Below are positions 1 through 40,095 of a stretch of 40,095 bases of DNA, one piece after another (position 1 is the stretch's first letter; the number at the start of each line of letters is the position of its first letter). The notes beneath the pieces were generated by a model that saw only the letters and a list, made by a program, of their open reading frames with translations, had not been told where the DNA came from and did not search any database. The stretch is from IMG/VR virus record IMGVR_UViG_3300044274_000136, positions 1 to 40,095 of that record; one strand, written 5' to 3'. Position numbers and translations under genes: made by a program. Origin of the DNA: a virus.

Positions 1-127
1 TTAGATTTAAAATAGCTGAACGCTACAATAAAAAGTGCATGGCTTACTGTGCTAAAAACGACTATTCTAATGCCTTAAAGGTTTGCAAAAAAGCAGTCAA
101 GGTATGCCCTAGTTATCCATACACGTA
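1..127. repeat. Terminal overlap identical to 39969-40095; the window is one closed circle of 39,968 bp
   Basis: First 127 nt (ttagatttaaaatagctgaacg...ttatccatacacgta) are repeated verbatim as the last 127 nt. Confidence 0.95.
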
Positions 128-482
128 CAATAATATTGCTGTTATTTTTCATAGCTTAGGAAAAAATGAACTAGCTATTAAGTACTACCTAGAGGCTATC
201 AGTTTAAAGCCTGATGATCCTAGTTTTCACTACAACCTAGGTATTGTCTATCAAGCAGAAAATGACGTTACTAATGCAATAAAAGCTTACCAGCATGCCC
301 TAAAATTAGACCCTAGTTTTATGTTAGCTTTTGGCAACCTTACTACTCTTTTACTTAAAAAACCACAATATCAGCAGGCTTTAGAAGGGTTTAGTGGTTT
401 ATTAGCATTGCAACCTGATGAAAATTATCAAAATATGGTTACCATTTTGCAGAAACTTATTGACAAGCAAGTCTTGCAATGA
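39..482 (+). CDS. TPR-repeat protein (TPR-1); true start probably upstream across the circle junction (ATG 39965 or 39950)
   Basis: TPR-like 34-aa repeats, e.g. AIKYYLEAISLKPDDPSFHYNLGIVY and AIKAYQHALKLDPSFMLAFGNL. The frame stays open back to 39941. The last codons (LIDKQVLQ) are encoded by promoter cassette a. Confidence 0.8.
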   Translation: MAYCAKNDYSNALKVCKKAVKVCPSYPYTYNNIAVIFHSLGKNELAIKYYLEAISLKPDDPSFHYNLGIVYQAENDVTNAIKAYQHALKLDPSFMLAFGNLTTLLLKKPQYQQALEGFSGLLALQPDENYQNMVTILQKLIDKQVLQ

Positions 483-488
483 TAAGGT
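460..488 (+). promoter_or_regulatory. Cassette a: TTGACA-17-TAAGGT promoter with palindrome GCAAG-T-CTTGC in the spacer
   Basis: TTGACA 460-465, palindrome 467-477, -10 at 483-488. A conserved leader aataggatataaaa precedes ATG 518. Confidence 0.6.
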
Positions 489-517
489 AAATCCACAAAT
501 AATAGGATATAAAAGTT

Positions 518-931
518 ATGACTGAAATTAAAAAAATAATGGAGCAAGTATACTTACAAGAAAAACACCAAGAGGCTATTCATTGTGGTGAAGCCTTATT
601 GTTATCTGGTTATGAAGCTGATGCAAATCTTTATTTTATGCTTGGCACTTCCTACTCACGGCTTGAACAATATGATAAAGCTATTAGCAATTTAGCAGAA
701 TCCATTAAGTTAAAACCTGATTATGCACAGGCACACCATAACCTTGGTGTTGCTTATGGTGAAAAAGGAGACTATGACAAAGCTGTAGAAGCTTATAACC
801 AAGCTATTAAGCTAGACCCTGATAAGGACTATGGGCACTATAACCTTCGTAATGCTTCTTATACTAAAGAATGGTATGTCAGAGCCATAGTTTGTAGTGA
901 GAAAGGCATTGAGGAGGGTGACAAATCATGA
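518..931 (+). CDS. TPR-repeat protein (TPR-2)
   Basis: AISNLAESIKLKPDYAQAHHNLGVAYGEKGDYDKAVEAYNQAIKLDPD is near-consensus TPR; no other domain is visible. Confidence 0.85.
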   Translation: MTEIKKIMEQVYLQEKHQEAIHCGEALLLSGYEADANLYFMLGTSYSRLEQYDKAISNLAESIKLKPDYAQAHHNLGVAYGEKGDYDKAVEAYNQAIKLDPDKDYGHYNLRNASYTKEWYVRAIVCSEKGIEEGDKS

Positions 932-1101
932 TGGAATTTATAATACCCTTCTCATTAGCATTAATCTTATGTTTTTTTTACACTGTCATTAACCATGAGG
1001 GGTTTTTGAGATATTTGAGCATAGCAACAATGGTTTTTATTGCCGTTGTTGATGTCACTCTTTACTATTCTATGATGGAGGCAAAGAATGCAACTATCTA
1101 G
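928..1101 (+). CDS. Small two-TM membrane protein, 57 aa (below the track cutoff)
   Basis: Hand translation MMEFIIPFSLALILCFFYTVINHEGFLRYLSIATMVFIAVVDVTLYYSMMEAKNATI. Strong SD GAGGAGGG at 911-918; ATGA overlap with the TPR-2 stop. Confidence 0.5.
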   Translation: MMEFIIPFSLALILCFFYTVINHEGFLRYLSIATMVFIAVVDVTLYYSMMEAKNATI

Positions 1102-1228
1102 TACAATTCATTTGATATTACTAGCAGTAGTCTTGTTATTTATCGTAGCTATTGCTGGTGATATTGACACTAAGGAGCAAGCAGACAGGGGGGTGTTATG
1201 GAAGCAAAGGGGGCTTTTACATGGCTAG
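1088..1228 (+). CDS. Small exported/membrane peptide, 46 aa (below the track cutoff)
   Basis: MQLSSTIHLILLAVVLLFIVAIAGDIDTKEQADRGVLWKQRGLLHG: hydrophobic N-terminus plus a hydrophilic tail. SD GGAGG at 1077-1081; overlaps both neighbouring genes. Confidence 0.45.
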   Translation: MQLSSTIHLILLAVVLLFIVAIAGDIDTKEQADRGVLWKQRGLLHG

Positions 1229-1568
1229 AATTACTCAAGAAATGGTCTTGCAAACTGCTAACGATTTATTTGTTGAGCATGGTAGAAAAATTAAGCGTAA
1301 GGAGCTAACAGAAGTTCTTAATTGCAGTTGGTCTGCCATTGATCAAATCTTTGAAACTCGAGAGCCTTTGTATAAATATGTAGAAACCCCCCAAGAGGTG
1401 CAGGAGCGTCATAAGAGGGATAAGGTGGGTGCATACAGGGTTGATCCTAATAGAGGTCACCCAAAAGTTTACAAAAAAGATGGTGGGTATATTGCAGTGG
1501 GGCGAGAAATACCACCTGAATTATTAGAACGTGCAAAACAATTAAAAGAAAGGTATAATTTAAGATAA
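1221..1568 (+). CDS. Hypothetical protein with HTH-like N-terminal domain (paralog family 1 of 3)
   Basis: Start moved to ATG 1221 (SD AAAGGGGG upstream). The N-terminus ITQEMVLQTANDLFVEHGRKIKRKELTEVLNC aligns with the 1593 and 31269 proteins. Confidence 0.6.
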   Translation: MARITQEMVLQTANDLFVEHGRKIKRKELTEVLNCSWSAIDQIFETREPLYKYVETPQEVQERHKRDKVGAYRVDPNRGHPKVYKKDGGYIAVGREIPPELLERAKQLKERYNLR

Positions 1569-1592: not shown

Positions 1593-2171
1593 ATGAGAAC
1601 AATATTGACAGGTCAAGAGATCTACCAGCAAGCGGAAAAGCTTTTTAATGAGAGTAATAAACCTATTACTAAGCAACAGTTGGCAGAGGCTCTTAATTGT
1701 CATTATAGAGTATTAGACAGGTGGCTAAACTCTGGGCATGTTGACAAAGGGATTGAGGTTTTTTTTGAGAAAAGCAGGCGTAAAAGAGTAAGAAAAAACC
1801 TGCTGGTACGAGAAAAAAAGGTTGTTGATATTATTTTAAATTCTGCAAAAAAGTTATCAGATAATGGAAAAAGAAGGGTTACTCAAGTGGACATAGTTAA
1901 TAATACGGAATTGAGCAGATTTATTGTAACAAAATATGTTGCAGGTGGCAAAATGCCAGATGAGTTTTTTGATTACATAGAACTTAACCGCCTTAAGGTA
2001 AATCATGGAAAAAGGAACACTGGCAAAAATGATACTATTGAAGTTTGGAATCCTGACATGAGCAAATATTTAACACAGCATCAAATTGATAGCTTAAGGC
2101 AACATAGCACTACTAAGCAATCAGTTGATCAATTAACCAATTTTAGAAAGGTAGATTATGATAGAGTATGA
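1593..2171 (+). CDS. Hypothetical protein with HTH-like N-terminal domain (paralog family 2 of 3)
   Basis: LTGQEIYQQAEKLFNESNKPITKQQLAEALNCHYRVLDRWL resembles the 1221 protein. ATG 1593 follows GGAG at 1577-1580. Confidence 0.6.
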   Translation: MRTILTGQEIYQQAEKLFNESNKPITKQQLAEALNCHYRVLDRWLNSGHVDKGIEVFFEKSRRKRVRKNLLVREKKVVDIILNSAKKLSDNGKRRVTQVDIVNNTELSRFIVTKYVAGGKMPDEFFDYIELNRLKVNHGKRNTGKNDTIEVWNPDMSKYLTQHQIDSLRQHSTTKQSVDQLTNFRKVDYDRV

Positions 2172-3619: not shown

Positions 3620-3901
3620 ATGACTGAAATTCAAAAACTAAAAGAAGCTGAGGAGTATTACAACCTTGGTAATACTTATCGTACAAAAGGAGATTATGAC
3701 AGAGCTATAGAAGCTTATAAGGAAGCCATTAAATTAGATCCTGATGATGCCAAGGCACACCACGTCCTTGGTGTTACTTATCATATTAAAGAAGAAAATG
3801 CACACTATAACTATGACAAAGCTATAGAAGCATATAAGGAAGCCATTAAATTAGATCCTGATTATGTCAATGCACACTATAACCTTGATAAGTTAAATTA
3901 A
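3620..3901 (+). CDS. TPR-repeat protein (TPR-3), paralog of TPR-2
   Basis: KGDYDRAIEAYKEAIKLDPDDAKAHHVLGVTY and KAIEAYKEAIKLDPDYVNAHYNL. It shares the ATGACTGAAATT start with TPR-2. Confidence 0.85.
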   Translation: MTEIQKLKEAEEYYNLGNTYRTKGDYDRAIEAYKEAIKLDPDDAKAHHVLGVTYHIKEENAHYNYDKAIEAYKEAIKLDPDYVNAHYNLDKLN

Positions 3902-12206: not shown

Positions 12207-12551
12207 TTGCCCACGGCTTATCTCGCCCTGCAGGGGTACCAGTTCCAATGGTTAACAAAACCAGATGACCCAAATCTAGCTTGTGCTGTTGTTAGTGTTG
12301 AGGATAATGTATTTGTACATCAATACATTAGAGATAGTATTAACAACAATAATGGCATCACTAGTTATTTTAATGATTTTTATTTGACTGTGCAAGAAGC
12401 CAACGAGAAAAAGCAAATCGTTGCTAATTCTTATGACAATGACGGTGGACTTATCGTAAATATACCCATTTTATCCATTTTGCCAAATGACTGGCAAGAA
12501 GTCACTGAACCCTATCTACGTGATAATGGTTGGTTTTCAAAGGAAATATAA
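12207..12551 (+). CDS. Hypothetical protein; the only available start is TTG
   Basis: Frame opens at 12198 with no in-frame ATG near the 5' end. A 37-codon ATG ORF (12155-12268) overlaps in another frame. Confidence 0.4.
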   Translation: MPTAYLALQGYQFQWLTKPDDPNLACAVVSVEDNVFVHQYIRDSINNNNGITSYFNDFYLTVQEANEKKQIVANSYDNDGGLIVNIPILSILPNDWQEVTEPYLRDNGWFSKEI

Positions 12552-12712
12552 TAGACTTGAACGACCGCAATCGATTTTATCATTTCAGCGGACTTGTTGA
12601 AGGGATAGCGACAACAATTTTAAAGATCAAACCTTTAATGACCTTCCACACTTTGAATTGTTATAGAATAATACTTTTTTTAATATATATTGTAGTAATA
12701 TGCTTTGTATAC

Positions 12713-12741
12713 TTGCTAAATTGTTAAGAATGTGCTATAAT
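12713..12741 (+). promoter_or_regulatory. Promoter upstream of the lysis cassette (TTGCTA-17-TATAAT with TGc extended -10)
   Basis: TTGCTA 12713-12718, TATAAT 12736-12741, 22 nt before ATG 12764. Confidence 0.55.
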
Positions 12742-12763
12742 GCTATAAAGACGACAAAAAAAT

Positions 12764-12991
12764 ATGAACAAGTATTTAGAAGATACAGCAGGCAACAAAT
12801 CTAGCAAAAGGCTTTGGGGGTCAATAGTGTTCACAGTAGCCATTGTATTAAGTGTATACGCGGTTGTTGCTAGTGTTTACTTAGGAAATTCAATAGATAG
12901 CAATGTTTTTAATATTATTGCTTCACTATCTTTATCTGGAACTTCCCTCCTAGGAATAGGTACTTTTGAGAAAGGTAAGCGTGACATTTAA
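12764..12991 (+). CDS. Putative holin (two TM segments)
   Basis: NKSSKRLWGSIVFTVAIVLSVYAVVASVYL and NIIASLSLSGTSLLGIGTF hydrophobic spans with a charged C-terminus; lies upstream of the spanin-like pair. Confidence 0.5.
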   Translation: MNKYLEDTAGNKSSKRLWGSIVFTVAIVLSVYAVVASVYLGNSIDSNVFNIIASLSLSGTSLLGIGTFEKGKRDI

Positions 12992-13199
12992 ACCATGGCA
13001 TCTTATATCAAAAATAGTGGGGTTTATTTCTGCGGTTATCCTTGCCTTTAATCGTGGGAAAATAGCAAAGGAGCAAGAAAACATAAACAATAACTATAAA
13101 GAGGTAATAAAGGGTGCTAAACGGAAAAAAAAACGTAATCTTGATAGTGATACTACTGTTAGAGAGCGGTTGCTCAAAAATGCTAGAGACAGAAAGTAA
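12981..13199 (+). CDS. Putative i-spanin-like protein (N-terminal TM, highly charged C-terminal part)
   Basis: GTG 12981 sits 5 nt after AAAGG. LISKIVGFISAVILAF is followed by a Lys/Arg/Glu-rich tail. The 3' end overlaps the next ORF in another frame. Confidence 0.4.
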   Translation: MTFKPWHLISKIVGFISAVILAFNRGKIAKEQENINNNYKEVIKGAKRKKKRNLDSDTTVRERLLKNARDRK

Positions 13200-13329
13200 T
13201 AATCAATCAATATGTGCATTTTTAGAAGAAGTTAGACCTTTCACCGAAGAAATCAACAATTTATCAATTGAAACTTTGCGTCAGATTGATAACAATAACG
13301 AAGAGATAAAACATTACTGCACAAAGTGA
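13114..13329 (+). CDS. Putative o-spanin (lipoprotein-like), overlapping the i-spanin-like gene
   Basis: GTG start 9 nt after GAGG. The signal KKNVILIVILLLESGC|S has an imperfect lipobox; further Cys residues occur in the mature part. Confidence 0.4.
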   Translation: MLNGKKNVILIVILLLESGCSKMLETESNNQSICAFLEEVRPFTEEINNLSIETLRQIDNNNEEIKHYCTK

Positions 13330-16804: not shown

Positions 16805-17203
16805 ATGACTGAAGACATACTAAAATACAAAATGGAAGACGGTCTAAAGATCATCTTAAAAGATGGTAAAGGTTCGTATCTTAGCTCTAGCGCTGAATAT
16901 TACGACCCAGTATATAAATATTATAAACGTAACTCATTGTTAGTCATTGAAGGACAAGGACTCTATAAGTATACACATGAATTATCAGACGTAGAGGCGA
17001 TAATAGAGTACAAATTAATTACAACAATGATTTCTGAGACGGGAAAGGAGTTTCGTTATTTTCGTGCATTTAAAGACAAAAAACATATTGATAGCAATGA
17101 TGATAATGAAATTTGCTTTAATGAAATAGAGGCAAAGATAAAAGAAATTAAAGAGGAATATGAAGAGATGTCGTCTTATGCAAAACAAGTAACTAACACT
17201 TGA
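16805..17203 (+). CDS. Hypothetical protein (island gene 1)
   Basis: ORF behind cassette c. It begins ATGACTGAA like TPR-2, TPR-3 and erf. Its TGA stop lies inside the TTGACA of cassette d. Confidence 0.6.
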   Translation: MTEDILKYKMEDGLKIILKDGKGSYLSSSAEYYDPVYKYYKRNSLLVIEGQGLYKYTHELSDVEAIIEYKLITTMISETGKEFRYFRAFKDKKHIDSNDDNEICFNEIEAKIKEIKEEYEEMSSYAKQVTNT

Positions 17204-17228
17204 CAAGTAAATCTTGCAATGTTATAGT
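17200..17228 (+). promoter_or_regulatory. Cassette d: TTGACA-17-TATAGT
   Basis: ttgacaagtaaatcttgcaatgttatagt followed by the leader taagtaacaaaaaataaggatatatt and ATG 17255. Confidence 0.6.
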
Positions 17229-17254
17229 TAAGTAACAAAAAATAAGGATATATT

Positions 17255-17872
17255 ATGACGACAGAGCAAAACATCATTCAAGATATCATAAATAAATATA
17301 GGGATTTAATTAATTTAACTCCTAACTTTGAGAAACATTACAGTTATCCAAAAATTACGGATTTAGTAAAGGGAAACTATGGTTTTTATTATACAGAGAT
17401 AGGGAAAGCTTATAACCTTTGGAGGGAGAAAGAAAAAGCCATTGAATGCCACAAGAAAGCAGTTGAGTTAAGCCCTAGCACAACGTCTTATTACTGGCTT
17501 GCTGAGGCATACAATACAAGTGATGATTTAGATAAAAAAATAGCAGCTTATAAAAAAGCAATTGAGTTAGATACAAGGGAGAGAGACTCTTTAGAAGCGT
17601 TAGAAAGTTTAGCATTAGTTTATTTCATGACTGATAAACATAATGAGGCATTAGCTAGTTATGAAAAACTCCTTGAAAAAGAATGGCTTTTTAGTGCAAA
17701 ACATAAGGCAAAGCTGTTTTACATGCTTGCAGTGTGTTATGAAGATGTCGAAAGATACGAAGATGCAAAAGAAGCCTATACTAAAAGCTATCAAATTGAT
17801 CCCGACTTAGTAAAGCAACGTGATGTATTGGCACGGCTTGCAAATAGTGTAGATTGGCAGACAGGGAATTAA
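17255..17872 (+). CDS. TPR-repeat protein (TPR-4)
   Basis: AIECHKKAVELSPSTTSYYWLAEAY, KIAAYKKAIELD and YEDAKEAYTKSYQIDPD repeats. Confidence 0.8.
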   Translation: MTTEQNIIQDIINKYRDLINLTPNFEKHYSYPKITDLVKGNYGFYYTEIGKAYNLWREKEKAIECHKKAVELSPSTTSYYWLAEAYNTSDDLDKKIAAYKKAIELDTRERDSLEALESLALVYFMTDKHNEALASYEKLLEKEWLFSAKHKAKLFYMLAVCYEDVERYEDAKEAYTKSYQIDPDLVKQRDVLARLANSVDWQTGN

Positions 17873-17895
17873 AACAGGTGCATTACGATCAATAC

Positions 17896-18159
17896 ATGTC
17901 ATTTTTTAGGAAAAGGCGATACGATGCACAGATAAAGCAGATAAAAAAGGATTTAAAAGTATCTGAAATTTCTTTTGAGAAGGAACGGCTAGAGCTTGAA
18001 GAGATAGAGAGGAAAATAGGGGTTAAAGCTAAAGACTTGCCTAGCATCATTGCTGATGAGATTACGTGGGAGGGTGGTATTGTTACCTATAGAAAGGGTG
18101 ATATGTATTACTCTCAAAAGATTAATTTAGCAGATAAGCAAGTAAGGTATAGGAGGTAG
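17896..18159 (+). CDS. Hypothetical coiled-coil protein (start uncertain: TTG 17854, GTG 17878 or ATG 17896)
   Basis: ORF 17854-18159; first ATG at 17896. Confidence 0.45.
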   Translation: MSFFRKRRYDAQIKQIKKDLKVSEISFEKERLELEEIERKIGVKAKDLPSIIADEITWEGGIVTYRKGDMYYSQKINLADKQVRYRR

Positions 18160-18162
18160 TAT

Positions 18163-18303
18163 ATGGCAAAGCCAGATAAAGTGGAGAACTTTCTAAATGG
18201 TGTACGTTATTGGCTACTAGGTATAACGTGTCTGCTTATAGGAACGTTTACAGCGTTAGCATTATTCTTAATATGTTATGATATGATGGGGTATTTAGTA
18301 TGA
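18163..18303 (+). CDS. Small membrane protein, 46 aa (below the track cutoff)
   Basis: MAKPDKVENFLNGVRYWLLGITCLLIGTFTALALFLICYDMMGYLV; strong SD AGGAGG 7 nt upstream. Confidence 0.55.
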   Translation: MAKPDKVENFLNGVRYWLLGITCLLIGTFTALALFLICYDMMGYLV

Positions 18304-18467
18304 GTAAGATTGATTCTGATAAATTTGTTTTTTTTATAATAAATATTTGTTTAATAGCTATGGGTATTGTTATTAGTACTTTGTTACTTTCTATCTCCGT
18401 TTTTCTTATTGATGGTGTAATAGACATTATATGGGATAAACCTTGTGTTTGTGAGGGGGGTGGGTAA
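18300..18467 (+). CDS. Small membrane protein, 55 aa (below the track cutoff)
   Basis: MSKIDSDKFVFFIINICLIAMGIVISTLLLSISVFLIDGVIDIIWDKPCVCEGGG. ATGA overlap upstream and TAATG overlap downstream. Confidence 0.45.
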   Translation: MSKIDSDKFVFFIINICLIAMGIVISTLLLSISVFLIDGVIDIIWDKPCVCEGGG

Positions 18468-31268: not shown

Positions 31269-31673
31269 ATGCATTTCGGCGACAAAAAAGATAAAGCATA
31301 CCTTGAAAGTGAGATTTTAGAGAGTGCAAAGTCTTTTTATAATAAGAATGGTAAAAAGTTCAACTGCAAAGAGTTTGCACGTTATTTAGGCAAGCACCCC
31401 CGAACGGTGCAAAATCACTTAAATGGTAATAAAGATATTTATGCATATATGCTAACCCCTAGGGAGGCAAGGTCAGAGGCACATAAAAAGATAAACTTAA
31501 TCCCTAATAATGAGAAAATCAAAAAAGAAAAGCAATTTAGGGATAAGCAAAAAAGAACGAAGGTACATGAGATAAAAAGACAGGTAAATCTCTATCAGAT
31601 TGAGCGGTTGAGGGCTAGAGCTACTTGTCCAGCAACGATGCAAAGGCTTAAGGAATTAGAGACTGCAAGTTGA
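31269..31673 (+). CDS. Hypothetical protein with HTH-like N-terminal domain (paralog family 3 of 3)
   Basis: ESEILESAKSFYNKNGKKFNCKEFARYLGKHPRTVQNHL aligns with the 1221 and 1593 proteins; basic C-terminus. Confidence 0.6.
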   Translation: MHFGDKKDKAYLESEILESAKSFYNKNGKKFNCKEFARYLGKHPRTVQNHLNGNKDIYAYMLTPREARSEAHKKINLIPNNEKIKKEKQFRDKQKRTKVHEIKRQVNLYQIERLRARATCPATMQRLKELETAS

Positions 31674-32890: not shown

Positions 32891-33067
32891 TTACCTTTTT
32901 TTATTTTGATAATATCCATATATTATTAAGATATAGTATATGATAGCTATTGAAATCATGGGGGTGCTTTGGAGCATATAACCAAGTATGCCAAATAGAA
33001 GCCCCCACGTTTGCTTAGCTATATGCTCCCAAATCTTAACAGCTTGCTCTAAAAAAAAATTTCTCAT
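32891..33067 (-). CDS. Small membrane protein, 58 aa
   Basis: Start moved to ATG 33067 (ATGA overlap with the upstream gene): MRNFFLEQAVKIWEHIAKQTWGLLFGILGYMLQSTPMISIAIIYYILIIYGYY. Confidence 0.5.
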   Translation of the reverse strand: MRNFFLEQAVKIWEHIAKQTWGLLFGILGYMLQSTPMISIAIIYYILIIYGYYQNKKR

Positions 33068-33249
33068 ATGTGGTGCAAGGTTGTTAATATAGTAGCTATG
33101 GCAAATAAACCATACATAGGCACGATAAAGCATAAACGTATCATACAAGCTCGCTTGCCTTTACCCTCGATTCTTTCATTAATTTCGAATATTGCGTATA
33201 TTATAAAAGCCCAAAGTGCTACTAATAATATAAAATCTACTGGTATCAT
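33064..33249 (-). CDS. Small two-TM membrane protein, 61 aa
   Basis: DFILLVALWAFIIYAIF and LCFIVPMYGLFAIATILTTL; SD AAGGAGG upstream; TAATG overlap with the upstream gene. Confidence 0.55.
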   Translation of the reverse strand: MIPVDFILLVALWAFIIYAIFEINERIEGKGKRACMIRLCFIVPMYGLFAIATILTTLHHI

Positions 33250-35247: not shown

Positions 35248-36285
35248 ATGAATAAAAAAAACACTGAAAATTATCTTGAAAATAAAGGGTGTGGATTTAC
35301 CCAAATAAGCAACAAATTTATACAAAACAACAAGATAAGTAATACTGCAAAGGCTGTTTATATCTATATGGCTAGTCGCCCCGATGGTTGGGAATTTCAC
35401 GTTAACGAAATTAGAAATAACGTAAAATCTGGTCGTGAAGCAATAAATAATGCAATGAACGAACTCATTGATTTTGGCTATCTCATAAAGTCTCAAATAA
35501 GGTGCAAGTTAGGTAAATTTAATAAAAATCACTACAAAATATTATACCAGCCGTTGACGGAAAACCCGTTGACGGAAAATCCGTTGACGGTTGAACCGTT
35601 AACGGAAAACCAGACACTTAATAATACTGATATTAATAATACTGATATTAATAATAAGAAAAAAAAATATATAAAAAAAGATGGTGTACTAGATACACTA
35701 CCTTTTTCAGATCAGAACGAATTGCAGGGAAACTTAAGCAAGCATTCAGAGATTGAACCTTCCTTTCCAGAGACAAAAGGGAAAAGCCCTAAAGCGGATA
35801 AGGTGGAAAACAAACAAAACTTGATGGTTAGTAAGCAGGTAGAGCAAAGCCCTAAGGTTAACGGCTACTCGCAAGATTTCCTAGAATTTTGGAATCTCTA
35901 TCCCGTAAAGGGAAGCAACAACGGAGGCGCGGCGACAAAAGGGAGTAAGAAAACAGCCTACAAAGCTTGGCTTAAAGCTTTTAAAGATAACAACAATTTA
36001 ACATTAAATGAAATTAAAATAGGATTACAAAACTATGCAAAATTTTTATACGGTTGTTCAGAAAGTGGGCAACAACCTTGCTTCCAAGGAAACAAACACG
36101 CATCAACATGGATTAACGCTAGTGGCTGGGAAGACGAGTACACAACCACAACAAGCAGGGCAACGATTAGAAATCCAGAGCAAGCAATGTACGAGGAAGC
36201 CTTCGAGGGACTTGACGAGATCATGCGTAGGGAACGAGAAAGTGCGGAAGTTTACGAAACCCTTAGAGGAATGCGTTCGGTCTAA
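35248..36285 (+). CDS. Replication initiator (lambda O / replisome-organizer-like) carrying the origin iterons
   Basis: N-terminal wHTH domain, a PLTEN repeat linker encoded by the iterons, and a C-terminal FLEFWNLYPVKG..AYKAWLKAF..TWINASGWEDEY motif. Confidence 0.7.
   Translation: MNKKNTENYLENKGCGFTQISNKFIQNNKISNTAKAVYIYMASRPDGWEFHVNEIRNNVKSGREAINNAMNELIDFGYLIKSQIRCKLGKFNKNHYKILYQPLTENPLTENPLTVEPLTENQTLNNTDINNTDINNKKKKYIKKDGVLDTLPFSDQNELQGNLSKHSEIEPSFPETKGKSPKADKVENKQNLMVSKQVEQSPKVNGYSQDFLEFWNLYPVKGSNNGGAATKGSKKTAYKAWLKAFKDNNNLTLNEIKIGLQNYAKFLYGCSESGQQPCFQGNKHASTWINASGWEDEYTTTTSRATIRNPEQAMYEEAFEGLDEIMRRERESAEVYETLRGMRSV
35551..35610 (+). repeat. Four tandem 15-bp iterons (putative origin of replication)
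   Basis: ccgttgacggaaaac / ccgttgacggaaaat / ccgttgacggttgaa / ccgttaacggaaaac, each with a CCGT-NN-ACGG palindrome. Confidence 0.75.
35618..35658 (+). repeat. AT-rich 15-bp tandem repeat (2.7 copies of ttaataatactgata) followed by an A-tract; candidate DNA-unwinding element
   Basis: Read directly; lies immediately 3' of the iterons. Confidence 0.6.
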
Positions 36286-39495: not shown

Positions 39496-39983
39496 TTTTA
39501 GGTGTTGATATTGGCAACAAGGGTGCAATGTCTATTATTGACGGCAATCGAATAGTTGCTGTTTTTGATGTACCATTAATTAACGAATCAATATATCGTA
39601 ATAAGGGGGGCAAGCCTGCCCCTATTTTAGATATTAAAGAGGTTAATAAGTGCTTACCTAAAGTAAAGTTTGCTGTTATAGAAGAACCAATAACACCCTT
39701 TAATAAAACATCGCAATGTATAATTAACGCATGTAAGCGTAGTATGGGTTTTGGTATGTGGCTTTCTTATTTTAAATTAAAGGATATACCTTTTTACACT
39801 GTAAAGCCTGCCACATGGAAAAAAGCACTAGGAATATCTAAAGATAAGCAAGCATCTATAGACGCTTGTTATAATATTTTTGGAGAAAGTGCTAAGGAAT
39901 TCATTACCTCAAAAAGCCATGATGGCAGGGCAGAGGCTAGTATAATAGCATGGTATGGTTTAAAATGTTTAGATTTAAAATAG
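39492..39983 (+). CDS. RuvC-like Holliday junction resolvase
   Basis: MILGVDIGNKGA (Asp), FAVIEEP (Glu) and SHDGRAEASIIAWYG (Asp) match the RuvC-fold catalytic layout. The stop lies inside the terminal overlap. Confidence 0.75.
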   Translation: MILGVDIGNKGAMSIIDGNRIVAVFDVPLINESIYRNKGGKPAPILDIKEVNKCLPKVKFAVIEEPITPFNKTSQCIINACKRSMGFGMWLSYFKLKDIPFYTVKPATWKKALGISKDKQASIDACYNIFGESAKEFITSKSHDGRAEASIIAWYGLKCLDLK

Positions 39984-40095
39984 CTGAACGCTACAATAAA
40001 AAGTGCATGGCTTACTGTGCTAAAAACGACTATTCTAATGCCTTAAAGGTTTGCAAAAAAGCAGTCAAGGTATGCCCTAGTTATCCATACACGTA
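39969..40095. repeat. Second copy of the terminal overlap (same as 1-127)
   Basis: Direct reading; contains the RuvC-like stop codon (39981-39983) and the 5' end of the TPR-1 gene. Confidence 0.95.

Follow-up and report, generated by a model that had tools for sequence, protein, structure and literature searches.

Small accessory proteins of the inner membrane serve phages in superinfection exclusion or host takeover, as exemplified by T4 Imm, P22 SieA and HK97 gp15. Small proteins consisting of TPRs throughout are known from the class II T3SS chaperones (SycD/LcrH, IpgC, PcrH, SicA), which hold about three repeats in ~140-170 aa and whose genes lie directly upstream of genes for hydrophobic translocators of 300-600 aa. 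TPR proteins are also the receptors of RRNPP/arbitrium systems such as AimR-AimP, Rap-Phr and PlcR-PapR, which belong to Firmicutes and their phages. In the signature described for these systems, a pro-peptide of 10-100 aa is exported by way of a Sec or PptAB signal and gives rise to the mature peptide by processing, and the receptor is a protein of 250-500 aa with TPRs, the gene of which directly neighbors that of the pro-peptide (PMC10075063).

The stretch of DNA analyzed here (the window, 40,095 nt) is the circular genome of a myovirus-like phage of ~40 kb that is known from marine metagenome assemblies and has a host of Gram-negative type; its terminal repeat spans positions 1-127 and 39969-40095. 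The original prediction had likened 460-1228 to a TPR receptor with an adjacent small exported pro-peptide, a layout thought to recur at 17200-18467, and had named a membrane-targeting or host-takeover module as an equally open reading. If true, the communication reading would extend arbitrium-like peptide systems to phages of Gram-negative hosts for the first time, but the comparative evidence opposes it. We lean toward a different reading, in which a promoter cassette and a variable TPR gene are followed by coupled tiny integral membrane proteins that would be accessory to the envelope and not a secreted signal.

Gene Organization at 460-1228

Table 1. Features of the window considered in this study.
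Feature	Position	Strand	Description
TPR-1	1..482	+	begins at 39966 and crosses the circular junction; 161 aa in total; Pfam TPR
Promoter cassette	460..503	+	-35 TTGACA 460-465; 17-nt spacer with GCAAGTCTTGC; -10 TAAGGT 483-488
TPR-2	518..931	+	137 aa, cytoplasmic, TPR-only, ~3 near-consensus TPR motifs
mini1	928..1101	+	57-aa two-helix membrane hairpin; start overlaps TPR-2 stop (ATGA 928-931)
mini2 proper	1088..1207	+	codons 1-40; N-terminal hydrophobic helix, A-x-A-G, conserved GDIDTKEQ..G.LW tail
mini3 3' remnant	1208..1228	+	residues 41-46 RGLLHG (1208-1225) and stop of the 46-aa chimera
g115	1221..1568	+	115 aa; N-terminal three-helix HTH-like domain
g192	1593..2171	+	next operon gene; same HTH-like N-terminal domain (BLASTP against g115, E 0.003)
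Lysis-type cluster	12764-13329		75-aa holin-like protein and overlapping i-/o-spanin-like genes; from sequence features, without Pfam support
Promoter cassette at the head of "copy 2"	17200..17243	+	same repeat and match evidence
TPR-3	17255..17872	+	205 aa, the last ~22 residues from the next gene; Pfam TPR
87-aa ORF	17896..18159	+	101 aa from TTG 17854; truncated 3' part of a 141-146-aa gene of relatives
"Copy-2" 46-aa protein	18163..18303	+	single-pass membrane protein by hydropathy; homologues in L001 and L021, absent from L020 and L022
"Copy-2" 55-aa protein	18300..18467	+	membrane protein; homologues in L001 and L020, absent from L021 and L022

The predicted open reading frames of TPR-2 (137 aa), mini1 (57 aa) and mini2 (1088-1228 in the window, 46 aa) proved exact (Table 1), as did the ATGA overlap of TPR-2 with mini1, the overlap of mini1 with mini2 (14 nt) and the SD sites, which are GAGGAGGG ahead of mini1 and GGAGG ahead of mini2, the latter invariant across relatives. 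TPR-2 has an SD site as well. Two transmembrane segments had been proposed for mini1, and both approaches used here agree with that: its hydropathy profile has two hydrophobic segments, and AlphaFold2 returns a helical hairpin (pLDDT 88.9) with helices at residues 2-22 and 26-56. The single hydrophobic segment of mini2 is N-terminal; its 18 residues are followed by a conserved A-x-A-G, a pattern compatible with signal-peptidase cleavage, and are preceded by an n-region that lacks a basic residue in five of the six lineages.

The 46-aa form of mini2 is peculiar to a genome that has lost a gene. Alignment of the DNA with five relatives shows that a 161-nt deletion in the window, with its junction at 1207/1208, removed mini3, a protein of 63-70 aa with two TM segments that is present in the related sequences L013-L019 (BLAST places the breakpoint at L013 5826 to 5987). 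The deletion fused the last six residues of mini3 (RGLLHG) to the 40-aa mini2, and part of the "hydrophilic tail" is therefore a scar; the same 21 nt also hold the SD and start of g115. The hydrophobic N-terminus that had been noted for mini2 is present, but the final six residues of its tail do not belong to it. In relatives, mini2 has 40-44 aa and ends near ...LWKQ, with C-termini (WKQ, WKQQ, WSNN, WSKQ, WKQWQML) that vary and overlap the ribosome-binding site of mini3.

The ancestral unit consists of three tiny membrane proteins of 57, 40 and 63 aa (hereafter the trio). Each gene of this chain is linked to the next by an overlap of stop and start codons, and the chain is always found just upstream of the HTH-like g115. 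A similarity score between mini1 and mini3 (z = 4.8) was judged too weak a basis for paralogy of two hydrophobic hairpins.

In every lineage seen, the start of g115 overlaps the end of the gene before it, which is mini3 in relatives and the 46-aa chimera in the window. We found 12 homologues of g115 at 57-99% identity; of 15 pairs compared, 14 give a dN/dS of 0.10-0.30 and one, L015-L017, gives 0.51. Its AlphaFold2 model (pLDDT 74) gave weak, non-significant Foldseek matches to HTH regulators in the PDB. Paralogs lie at 31269-31673 and immediately downstream, the latter being g192, which has weak Pfam matches to HTH_29/HTH_11 and is syntenic in all relatives. In these sequences the trio stays with g115 whatever lies upstream.

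Conservation of the Small Membrane Protein Genes

The small genes were compared across six lineages related to the window, which come from metagenome assemblies of the ocean and of other sources. mini1 is conserved in all six, and in at least 15 protein clusters, and mini2 is conserved in all six as a protein of 40-44 aa. Across lineages, the trio has no in-frame stops, its indels comprise whole codons, and a correctly spaced SD precedes every start. Variable sites at the first, second and third codon positions number 19/13/32 in mini1 and 14/12/22 in mini2. Measured against L017, the most divergent lineage (dS ~1), dN/dS of the mini-ORFs is ~0.2, with values of 0.13-0.23 for mini1; close pairs, which offer few sites, range from 0.33 to 1.45. 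mini3 shows no third-position excess, and its dN/dS runs from 0.44 to 1.41 across pairs. These patterns show the small genes to be genuine and subject to purifying selection; mini3 is weakly constrained and, in the window genome, dispensable.

It is scarcely credible, given these data, that the mini-ORFs arose by chance within a leader or spacer without coding function, or that the region is a structured RNA. Such a reading could draw on the JGI gene caller, which left the mini-ORFs uncalled on an identical contig, on the lack of third-position excess in mini3, and on the synonymous divergence of the mini-region, which in some pairs is below that of g115 (0.24-0.38 versus 1.5 between the window and L015). 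Other gene callers do call the mini-ORFs, however, and the region has no match in Rfam. The target frames are open in all lineages, whereas the other five frames of mini1 carry 1-10 stops; for mini2 one reverse frame is open, in L015 only, and for mini3 one other forward frame is open in three lineages. Whole-codon indels, conserved SD spacing, the low dN/dS against L017, a conserved hydrophobic pattern and the confident AlphaFold2 model of mini1 likewise argue against such a reading. An alternative ORF of 102-105 aa that overlaps mini3 in another frame was set aside, as it is open in L013, L014 and L015, broken in L017 and L018, and not protein-like. The expectation that the mini-ORFs would be conserved in relatives is thus borne out by six lineages with open frames and codon-like substitutions.

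The small-protein family amounts to 25 clusters among 5.8 billion proteins, and to 2 representative clusters among 1.84 billion. The mini-proteins had no matches in Pfam, PHROG or PADLOC, a tblastn search of phage records with mini1 gave no meaningful match, and a Foldseek search of viral models with mini1 retrieved many uncharacterized phage hairpins of similar size, none of them significant. By these searches the small proteins form an orphan family confined to the phage group of the window. What is new here is an undescribed family of three translationally coupled micro-proteins, partly missed by standard gene callers.

The Promoter Cassette and the TPR Genes

The cassette at 460 overlaps the final codons of TPR-1. 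Its motif, TTGACAAG-N6-TTGC, has 6 matches in the window against 0.32 expected, it corresponds to the repeat families D2/D3 of the window, and it is kept in relatives ~55 nt upstream of the first operon genes. The cassette that had been predicted ahead of TPR-2 is a sigma70-like element, the consensus of which suggests promoter activity.

TPR-2 has no signal peptide and, as originally described, is made of TPR repeats alone: TPR_1/2/8/11 (E 1e-19 to 1e-20) are the sole domains that Pfam finds in it. TPR-1 (called as 161 aa in L002), TPR-2, TPR-3, a further gene (TPR-93) and their counterparts in relatives all pass curated Pfam cut-offs (PF00515, PF07719, PF13181, PF13414), and PADLOC returns only weak, generic TPR matches for the TPR proteins. 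No output domain (HTH, phosphatase) was detected by Pfam in TPR-2 or TPR-3, nor in the counterparts of TPR-2. The best PDB matches of TPR-2 are consensus designed TPRs, OGT and MamA, and neither class II chaperones nor RRNPP receptors are among its best 60 PDB sequence matches.

The gene upstream of the trio is variable. Counterparts of TPR-2 have 257, 216 or 73 aa or, in one lineage, are absent, and L014 has a different paralog; the position may also be held by a non-TPR protein of 164 aa, with the ATGA coupling kept. A TPR-only gene does lie directly upstream of the trio in five of six lineages, the most divergent included, with a stop-start overlap to mini1 in four of those five, an arrangement that may still reflect some functional link. 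In L015 and L016, on the other hand, the trio is present, and the contigs, which cover 7.3 kb from ERF to baseplate, contain no TPR gene at all. The anticipated synteny of TPR genes with mini-ORFs was hence recovered in most lineages and broken in these. TPR-1, TPR-93 and further paralogs have no adjacent small ORF, so that TPR genes and small ORFs each occur without the other, one of the observations that the original prediction had named as speaking against it. The TPR genes are at most an optional partner of the trio; they form a paralog family of their own, made up of rapidly changing protein-binding scaffolds that often come first after a cassette.

The phage lineage as a whole bears several TPR-only genes, variable in length and paralog, behind the portable promoter cassette.

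The Supposed Second Copy

The layout at 17200-18467 resembles that at 460-1228 only loosely, in that a TPR gene is followed by small membrane ORFs. An ORF of 87-101 aa intervenes, and the mini-proteins there are dissimilar to mini1 and mini2 (homology between the two sets was rejected at z < 1.3). Alignment with L020 and BLAST breakpoints show that TPR-3 has suffered a ~119-nt deletion (junction 17806/17807) and a frameshift, and intact versions of the gene next to it, of 141-146 aa, are found in L001, L020 and L021. TPR-3 is close to the small ORFs only because this deletion fused it to the next gene. L001, whose flanking structural genes are ~99% identical to those of the window, carries a different TPR gene, two genes away from the small ORFs. 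The "repeated architecture" is thus neither a duplicated nor a conserved unit. A single genome was misleading in this case: one deletion gave rise to the "peptide tail" and another to the "repeated layout".

Proposed Role and Alternative Readings

We read the module as an ordinary accessory module, and the small proteins are best read as an orphan inner-membrane family. The region most likely opens an accessory or early operon at its 5' end, with a portable cassette of sigma70-type promoter and leader that would drive the variable TPR-only gene. Next comes a string of genes, probably coupled in translation, which ancestrally encoded a 57-aa hairpin, a 40-aa single-helix protein with the GDIDTKEQ tail and a 63-aa hairpin, and which runs directly into the two HTH-like proteins, g115 and g192. 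Coupled translation may yield the small proteins in fixed proportion. Together they could assemble into a small hetero-oligomer inserted in the inner membrane of the host and alter an envelope function in the interest of the phage; the likeliest roles would be in superinfection exclusion or in host takeover, with no action as a secreted signal. The second reading offered by the original prediction, a membrane-targeting or host-takeover module, stays plausible. In their tiny size, their one or two helices and their location in accessory or early regions, the small proteins are similar to known phage inner-membrane proteins (Imm, SieA, gp15, hairpins of 50-70 aa), which likewise form orphan families with fast turnover that are gained and lost between close relatives. 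They differ in that the trio has no similarity to named families, its genes are chained, and it always precedes an HTH-like gene. Once the host is known, these micro-proteins would be cheap targets for superinfection-exclusion or host-envelope tests.

An RRNPP/arbitrium-like system, with mini2 as a secreted pro-peptide sensed by a TPR protein (or, in a split version, with g115/g192 as the output), is very improbable and is largely refuted by synteny. The likeness is that a phage has a TPR gene near a small SD-led ORF whose product begins with a hydrophobic segment and continues, after the conserved A-x-A-G, with a hydrophilic tail that is also conserved. Moreover, the 46 aa of this ORF (40-44 in relatives) fall within the size range of pro-peptides, TPR-2 has Pfam TPRs, and the TPR protein shares one operon with HTH-like proteins. 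However, the candidate receptor has 137 aa (73, 216 or 257 aa in counterparts, where there is one) as opposed to 250-500 aa, Pfam finds TPR families alone in it and in TPR-3, with neither HTH nor phosphatase, and its repeats are of canonical consensus type, with RRNPP receptors absent from the best 60 PDB matches. TPR-2 is not the direct neighbor of mini2 because mini1 intervenes, and one or two genes intervene in copy 2. The last six residues in the window, from which arbitrium would yield the mature peptide, are the deletion scar, and the C-terminus of mini2 in relatives is variable and overlaps the mini3 ribosome-binding site. Furthermore, the n-region mostly lacks a basic residue, the trio exists without a TPR gene in L015/L016, and in a diderm host, as the Gram-negative type implies, Sec export would take a peptide only as far as the periplasm. 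The proposal of a TPR receptor with an exported pro-peptide is therefore not supported, given a short TPR protein without output domain, a hairpin gene in the adjacent position, a tail whose last six residues are a scar and a pairing that is not kept. A split Gram-negative circuit is equally doubtful. There, a GDIDTKEQ..LW peptide released from mini2 by cleavage after A-x-A (the candidate tail peptide is GDIDTKEQADRGVLWKQ) or the trio itself would act through the TPR protein on g115/g192 and thereby on the cassettes, in which the sequence of interest for g115/g192 is TTGACAAGCAAGTCTTGC; in a weaker form, the TPR protein would be a chaperone or receptor dedicated to the tiny membrane proteins.

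By analogy with class II T3SS chaperones, the TPR-only protein could instead be a cytoplasmic chaperone or adaptor that holds the mini-proteins or delivers them to the membrane, which we consider unlikely. The parallel lies in a small all-TPR gene immediately upstream of genes for hydrophobic membrane proteins, an order seen in five of six lineages with a stop-start overlap in four, and in the ~3 motifs that TPR-2 holds in 137 aa without a signal peptide. It is also the case that, on the plus strand of the window, wherever a gap between ORFs of at least 85 aa contains a small membrane ORF with an SD site, it belongs to a TPR-headed operon, the holin/spanin cluster aside. Nevertheless, the trio is intact and well conserved in the 7.3-kb L015/L016 contigs that lack a TPR gene, the upstream TPR protein varies in length between 73 and 257 aa, with another paralog in its place in L014, and in copy 2 the TPR gene is one or two genes away from the small genes and is swapped between genomes with ~99% identical flanking structural genes. 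Class II chaperones are absent from the best 60 PDB matches, and the setting is unlike theirs: there is no secretion context (no secretion-system genes were found in the 40-kb genome), the downstream proteins have 40-63 aa, and the TPR protein is dispensable and variable. Still less probable is that the small membrane proteins form a holin-like, lysis-timing or membrane-depolarizing toxin set (antiholin, abortive-infection effector). Holins and small toxins of the membrane typically have such a size (40-63 aa) and one or two helices, holin/antiholin and spanin clusters likewise contain very small membrane proteins with overlapping genes, and one member has been lost in the window genome, as might happen to a costly gene. 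Yet a separate holin-like and spanin-like cluster, recognized by sequence features alone, is present elsewhere (Table 1), the trio operon contains recombination, nucleotide-metabolism and HTH genes and is far from any lysin, and PADLOC, PHROG and Pfam give no match. For these reasons, we retain the reading of the small proteins as envelope accessory proteins of the inner membrane.

Genome and Host Context

Among 50,697 phage records, neither a near nor a distant DNA match to the region was found. Profile searches with g115 and with the portal found no close prophage in genome contigs, those with g115 and the trio had no matches in metagenome and viral contigs, and no tRNA was detected in the genome. 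The Rep protein has only distant matches to plasmids, mostly from Firmicutes, which do not indicate a host. Low G+C, an abundance of TPR genes and the oceanic origin of samples led us to consider Trichodesmium as a host, and no supporting evidence emerged. The large terminase is only ~30% identical to those of known phages, and the portal profile search of contigs matched only L001 and relatives at ~25% identity.

Tiny Membrane Protein Genes Conserved in Six Lineages of the Phage Group

Two ORFs of 57 and 46 aa (mini1 and mini2) had been predicted directly downstream of TPR-2, a gene for a TPR-only protein, and their coordinates proved right (see the table of features). The ATG of mini1 overlaps the TPR-2 stop codon (ATGA) and is preceded by GAGGAGGG, GGAGG precedes the start of mini2, and the HTH-like gene g115 begins inside the 3' end of mini2 (ATGGCTAG). 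The mini-ORFs were not called by the JGI caller but were called by other gene callers. We located relatives via the neighboring 115-aa protein (12 clusters, 57–99% identity), read the surrounding DNA, and compared six lineages: the window and the metagenomic contigs L013, L014, L015/L016, L017, and L018/L019 (paired names denote one lineage). All six carry mini1 and the ORF that follows it.

Both frames are free of stops in all six lineages. The five remaining frames of mini1 contain 1–10 stops, and the sole exception among the other frames of mini2 is one reverse frame, open in L015. Length differences between lineages are whole codons, variable sites are most frequent at third codon positions (19/13/32 for positions one to three in mini1 and 14/12/22 in mini2), and a correctly spaced SD motif is kept ahead of every start. 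Against the most divergent lineage (dS 0.5–1.7), dN/dS is 0.13–0.23 for mini1 and 0.20–0.56 for mini2, while closer pairs give 0.33–1.45 from very few sites. AlphaFold2, using a 17-sequence alignment, predicts a helical hairpin for mini1 (helices 2–22 and 26–56, pLDDT 88.9), in agreement with its hydropathy. Based on these lines of evidence together, we conclude that the mini-ORFs are genuine genes, translated into tiny membrane proteins; their reality, conservation, and membrane character are demonstrated.

The mini-proteins are confined to this phage group: a search of 5.8 billion proteins gave 25 clusters, and one of 1.84 billion gave two representative clusters. They have no match in Pfam, PHROG, or PADLOC, and Foldseek returned non-significant matches only, many of them to uncharacterized 50–70-aa proteins from other phages. 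The micro-proteins represent a new orphan family, and the phage accessory module that encodes them is of an ordinary kind.

A near-identical mini1 variant (P0058, from a 41-kb JGI contig) reads FTLSLTMRG where the window has the loop FYTVINHEG (976–1005). Changes of −1 in a T-run and +1 in a G-run would account for the difference, as either a compensated frameshift with the ORF kept open or paired homopolymer sequencing errors.

A Third Mini-Gene Deleted in the Window

In every relative, a third mini-gene (mini3) encoding a two-helix protein of 63–70 aa that ends in ...ILRGLLHG lies between mini2 and g115. The window lacks it through a 161-nt deletion (junction 1207/1208), after which the first 40 codons of mini2 run directly into the final six of mini3. 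Ancestral mini2 is 40–44 aa long, with a C-terminus near ...G.LWKQ, and its last codons double as the SD and start of mini3. Thus, the “22-aa hydrophilic tail” attributed to mini2 includes a conserved segment, GDIDTKEQ, but the rest is a segment constrained by the ribosome-binding site overlap, followed by a six-residue deletion scar. Constraint on mini3 is weak (dN/dS 0.44–1.41 across pairs, with third-position excess absent), and the gene is evidently dispensable.

A different frame across mini3 and the beginning of g115 contains an alternative ORF of 102–105 aa that stays open in three lineages. We rejected it, as it is interrupted in L017 and L018 and does not read like a protein; T-rich hydrophobic coding probably gives rise to it as a by-product.

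Promoter Cassettes and the Second Locus

The predicted sigma70-like promoter cassette was confirmed: the window contains six copies of TTGACAAG-N6-TTGC, all on the + strand, against 0.32 expected, and in each a TAnnnT hexamer follows TTGACA at a distance of 17 nt. An 11-nt palindrome within the cassette (GCAAGTCTTGC) is present in three copies. In relatives, several operons have the cassette ~55 nt ahead of their first gene, and the identity of that gene varies. Thus, recombination between cassettes may shuffle modules, for example joining a 164-aa gene to the mini-genes in L015.

One cassette heads a locus thought to repeat the layout around TPR-2 (copy 2), yet its 46- and 55-aa proteins are not similar to mini1 or mini2 (z < 1.3). 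In related contigs, the order after the cassette is TPR (199 aa), 103, 141, 46, and a soluble 50-aa protein (L021); TPR (201), 146, a multi-pass 109-aa protein, and 56 (L020); or a different TPR (127), 114, 141, 46, and 57 (L001, whose flanking structural genes are ~99% identical to those of the window); L022 has none of the copy 2 genes. In the window, TPR-3 has become fused with the start of the 141-aa gene through a ~119-nt deletion and a frameshift. Given the two deletions and these non-homologous, variable genes, the likeness of the two loci is partly deletion-made and does not reflect a duplicated or conserved architecture.

Coordinates of features in the window and in related contigs
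Feature	Position	Strand	Remarks
Terminal repeat	1-127 = 39969-40095		127 nt, exact
TPR-1	39966-482		TPR-only; crosses circular junction
TPR-2	518-931		TPR-only; 137 aa
TPR-93	3620-3901		TPR-only; 93 aa
TPR-3	17255-17872		TPR-only; 205 aa
TPR-only gene, L013	2501-3022
TPR-only gene, L021	6358-6903
TPR-only gene, L001	1915-2298
mini1	928-1101		57 aa
mini2	1088-1228		46 aa
g115	1221-1568		HTH-like domain; 115 aa
g192	1593-2171		HTH-like domain
g115/g192 paralog	31269-31673		HTH-like domain
Cassette, ~65 nt (TTGACAAGCAAGTCTTGC..TAnnnT..AGGA)	460, 3077, 16750, 17200, 37016, 37587	+	kept in relatives
Copy 2	17200-18467		cassette, TPR-3, 87-101-aa ORF, 46-aa and 55-aa membrane ORFs
Alternative ORF, L013	5777-6088		rejected
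Alternative ORF, L014	5771-6088		rejected
Alternative ORF, L015	3350-3658		rejected
Lysis-type cluster	12207-13329		75-aa holin-like protein and overlapping i-/o-spanin-like genes (lipobox LLESGC), together at 12764-13329
Iteron-like repeats (CCGTTGACGGAAAA)	35551-35609		four tandem, 15 nt; in 345-aa replication-initiator gene; encode PLTENPLTEN...
Small hydrophobic ORFs	32891-33249	-	61 and 85 aa

TPR Genes and the Likely Role of the Module

The trio of mini-genes is always tied to the downstream g115 by overlapping stop and start codons, and the upstream gene is variable. A TPR gene directly precedes mini1 in L013 (257 aa), L018/L019 (216 aa), the window, L014 (73 aa, another paralog that resembles TPR-93), and L017 (cut off by the contig end). 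In L015/L016, this position is held by a 164-aa non-TPR protein whose gene retains the ATGA overlap with mini1, and no TPR gene was found in these contigs (7.3 kb each, ERF to baseplate genes). Several TPR paralogs are not followed by a small ORF, among others TPR-1, TPR-93, a 173-aa gene (L013), and a 181-aa gene (L021). Thus, TPR and mini-ORFs are not a conserved pair. Between L015 (3030–3315) and the window (928–1207), DNA identity is 82–84% in mini1/mini2 versus 59–68% in the flanking genes, which makes the small genes some of the best-conserved sequence in the region; synonymous divergence is 0.24–0.38 in the mini region versus 1.5. This mosaic suggests recent segment exchange or extra constraint on nucleotides.

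As predicted, TPR-2 matches TPR families alone, and its repeats are near the idealized consensus TPR (PDB sequence matches). Genomes of the phage group each encode at least four TPR-only proteins (73–257 aa), with near-consensus repeats in variable number, and paralogs are swapped even where flanking structural genes are ~99% identical between genomes. The family looks like fast-evolving binding scaffolds.

The original prediction had compared the module to RRNPP/arbitrium communication, whose signature comprises a small pro-peptide, a Sec-type signal, a receptor of 250–500 aa, TPRs in the receptor, and direct gene adjacency (PMC10075063). Mini2 has the size of a small pro-peptide, and TPRs are present, here canonical ones; however, TPR-2 is only 137 aa long and is not directly adjacent to mini2. 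On a Sec-type signal, the features of mini2 point both ways: its hydrophobic stretch and conserved A-x-A-G would fit one, whereas its n-region has no basic residue in five of the six lineages. Pfam detects no output domain, the best 60 PDB sequence matches of TPR-2 include no RRNPP receptor, and co-inheritance of receptor and peptide fails, with the trio lacking a TPR gene in L015/L016. Thus, the communication reading is not supported and we do not file the module as RRNPP-like. The original observation is partly confirmed: the ORFs, their overlaps and SD sites, the TPR-only content, and the cassette hold, whereas the tail and the repeated layout do not hold as described. That the TPR protein is a chaperone or adaptor seems unlikely, although this reading retains some probability, given that five of the six lineages have a TPR gene ahead of the trio.

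We propose instead that the cassette would drive an accessory or early operon in which coupled translation yields the small proteins in a fixed ratio. These would insert into the inner membrane and alter envelope function for the phage, most likely in superinfection exclusion or host takeover, with the TPR genes forming a separate, fast-changing family of binding scaffolds. The paralogs g115, g192, and 31269–31673 have a common N-terminal three-helix HTH-like domain (~60 aa; pairwise E 0.003 and 1e-5) with weak, non-significant structural hits to HTH regulators; they are candidate regulators, possibly acting on the cassette promoters.

Phage Genome

The terminal repeat indicates a circularly closed assembly of ~39,968 bp. 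No DNA-level relatives were found among 50,697 deposited phage genomes, and the terminase is ~30% identical to known terminases; contigs identical or related to the window are present in JGI, Tara Oceans, and other metagenome assemblies. Precomputed Pfam labels of identical contigs comprise a myovirus-type structural set (sheath initiator, baseplate wedge, Mu F-like protein, major capsid, portal), ERF, a RecA-dependent nuclease, cI-like HTH repressors, and a replication initiator. The proteins of the lysis-type cluster have no Pfam match and no recognizable endolysin adjoins it. Their holin-like and spanin-like roles are inferred from sequence, and the cluster points to a Gram-negative-type host. 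Iteron-like repeats lie within the replication-initiator gene, and no integrase is labeled by Pfam among the called genes; thus, the element may persist as a phage-plasmid. Two further small hydrophobic ORFs adjoin the cI-like repressor genes, a position more typical of lysogeny-expressed exclusion proteins.
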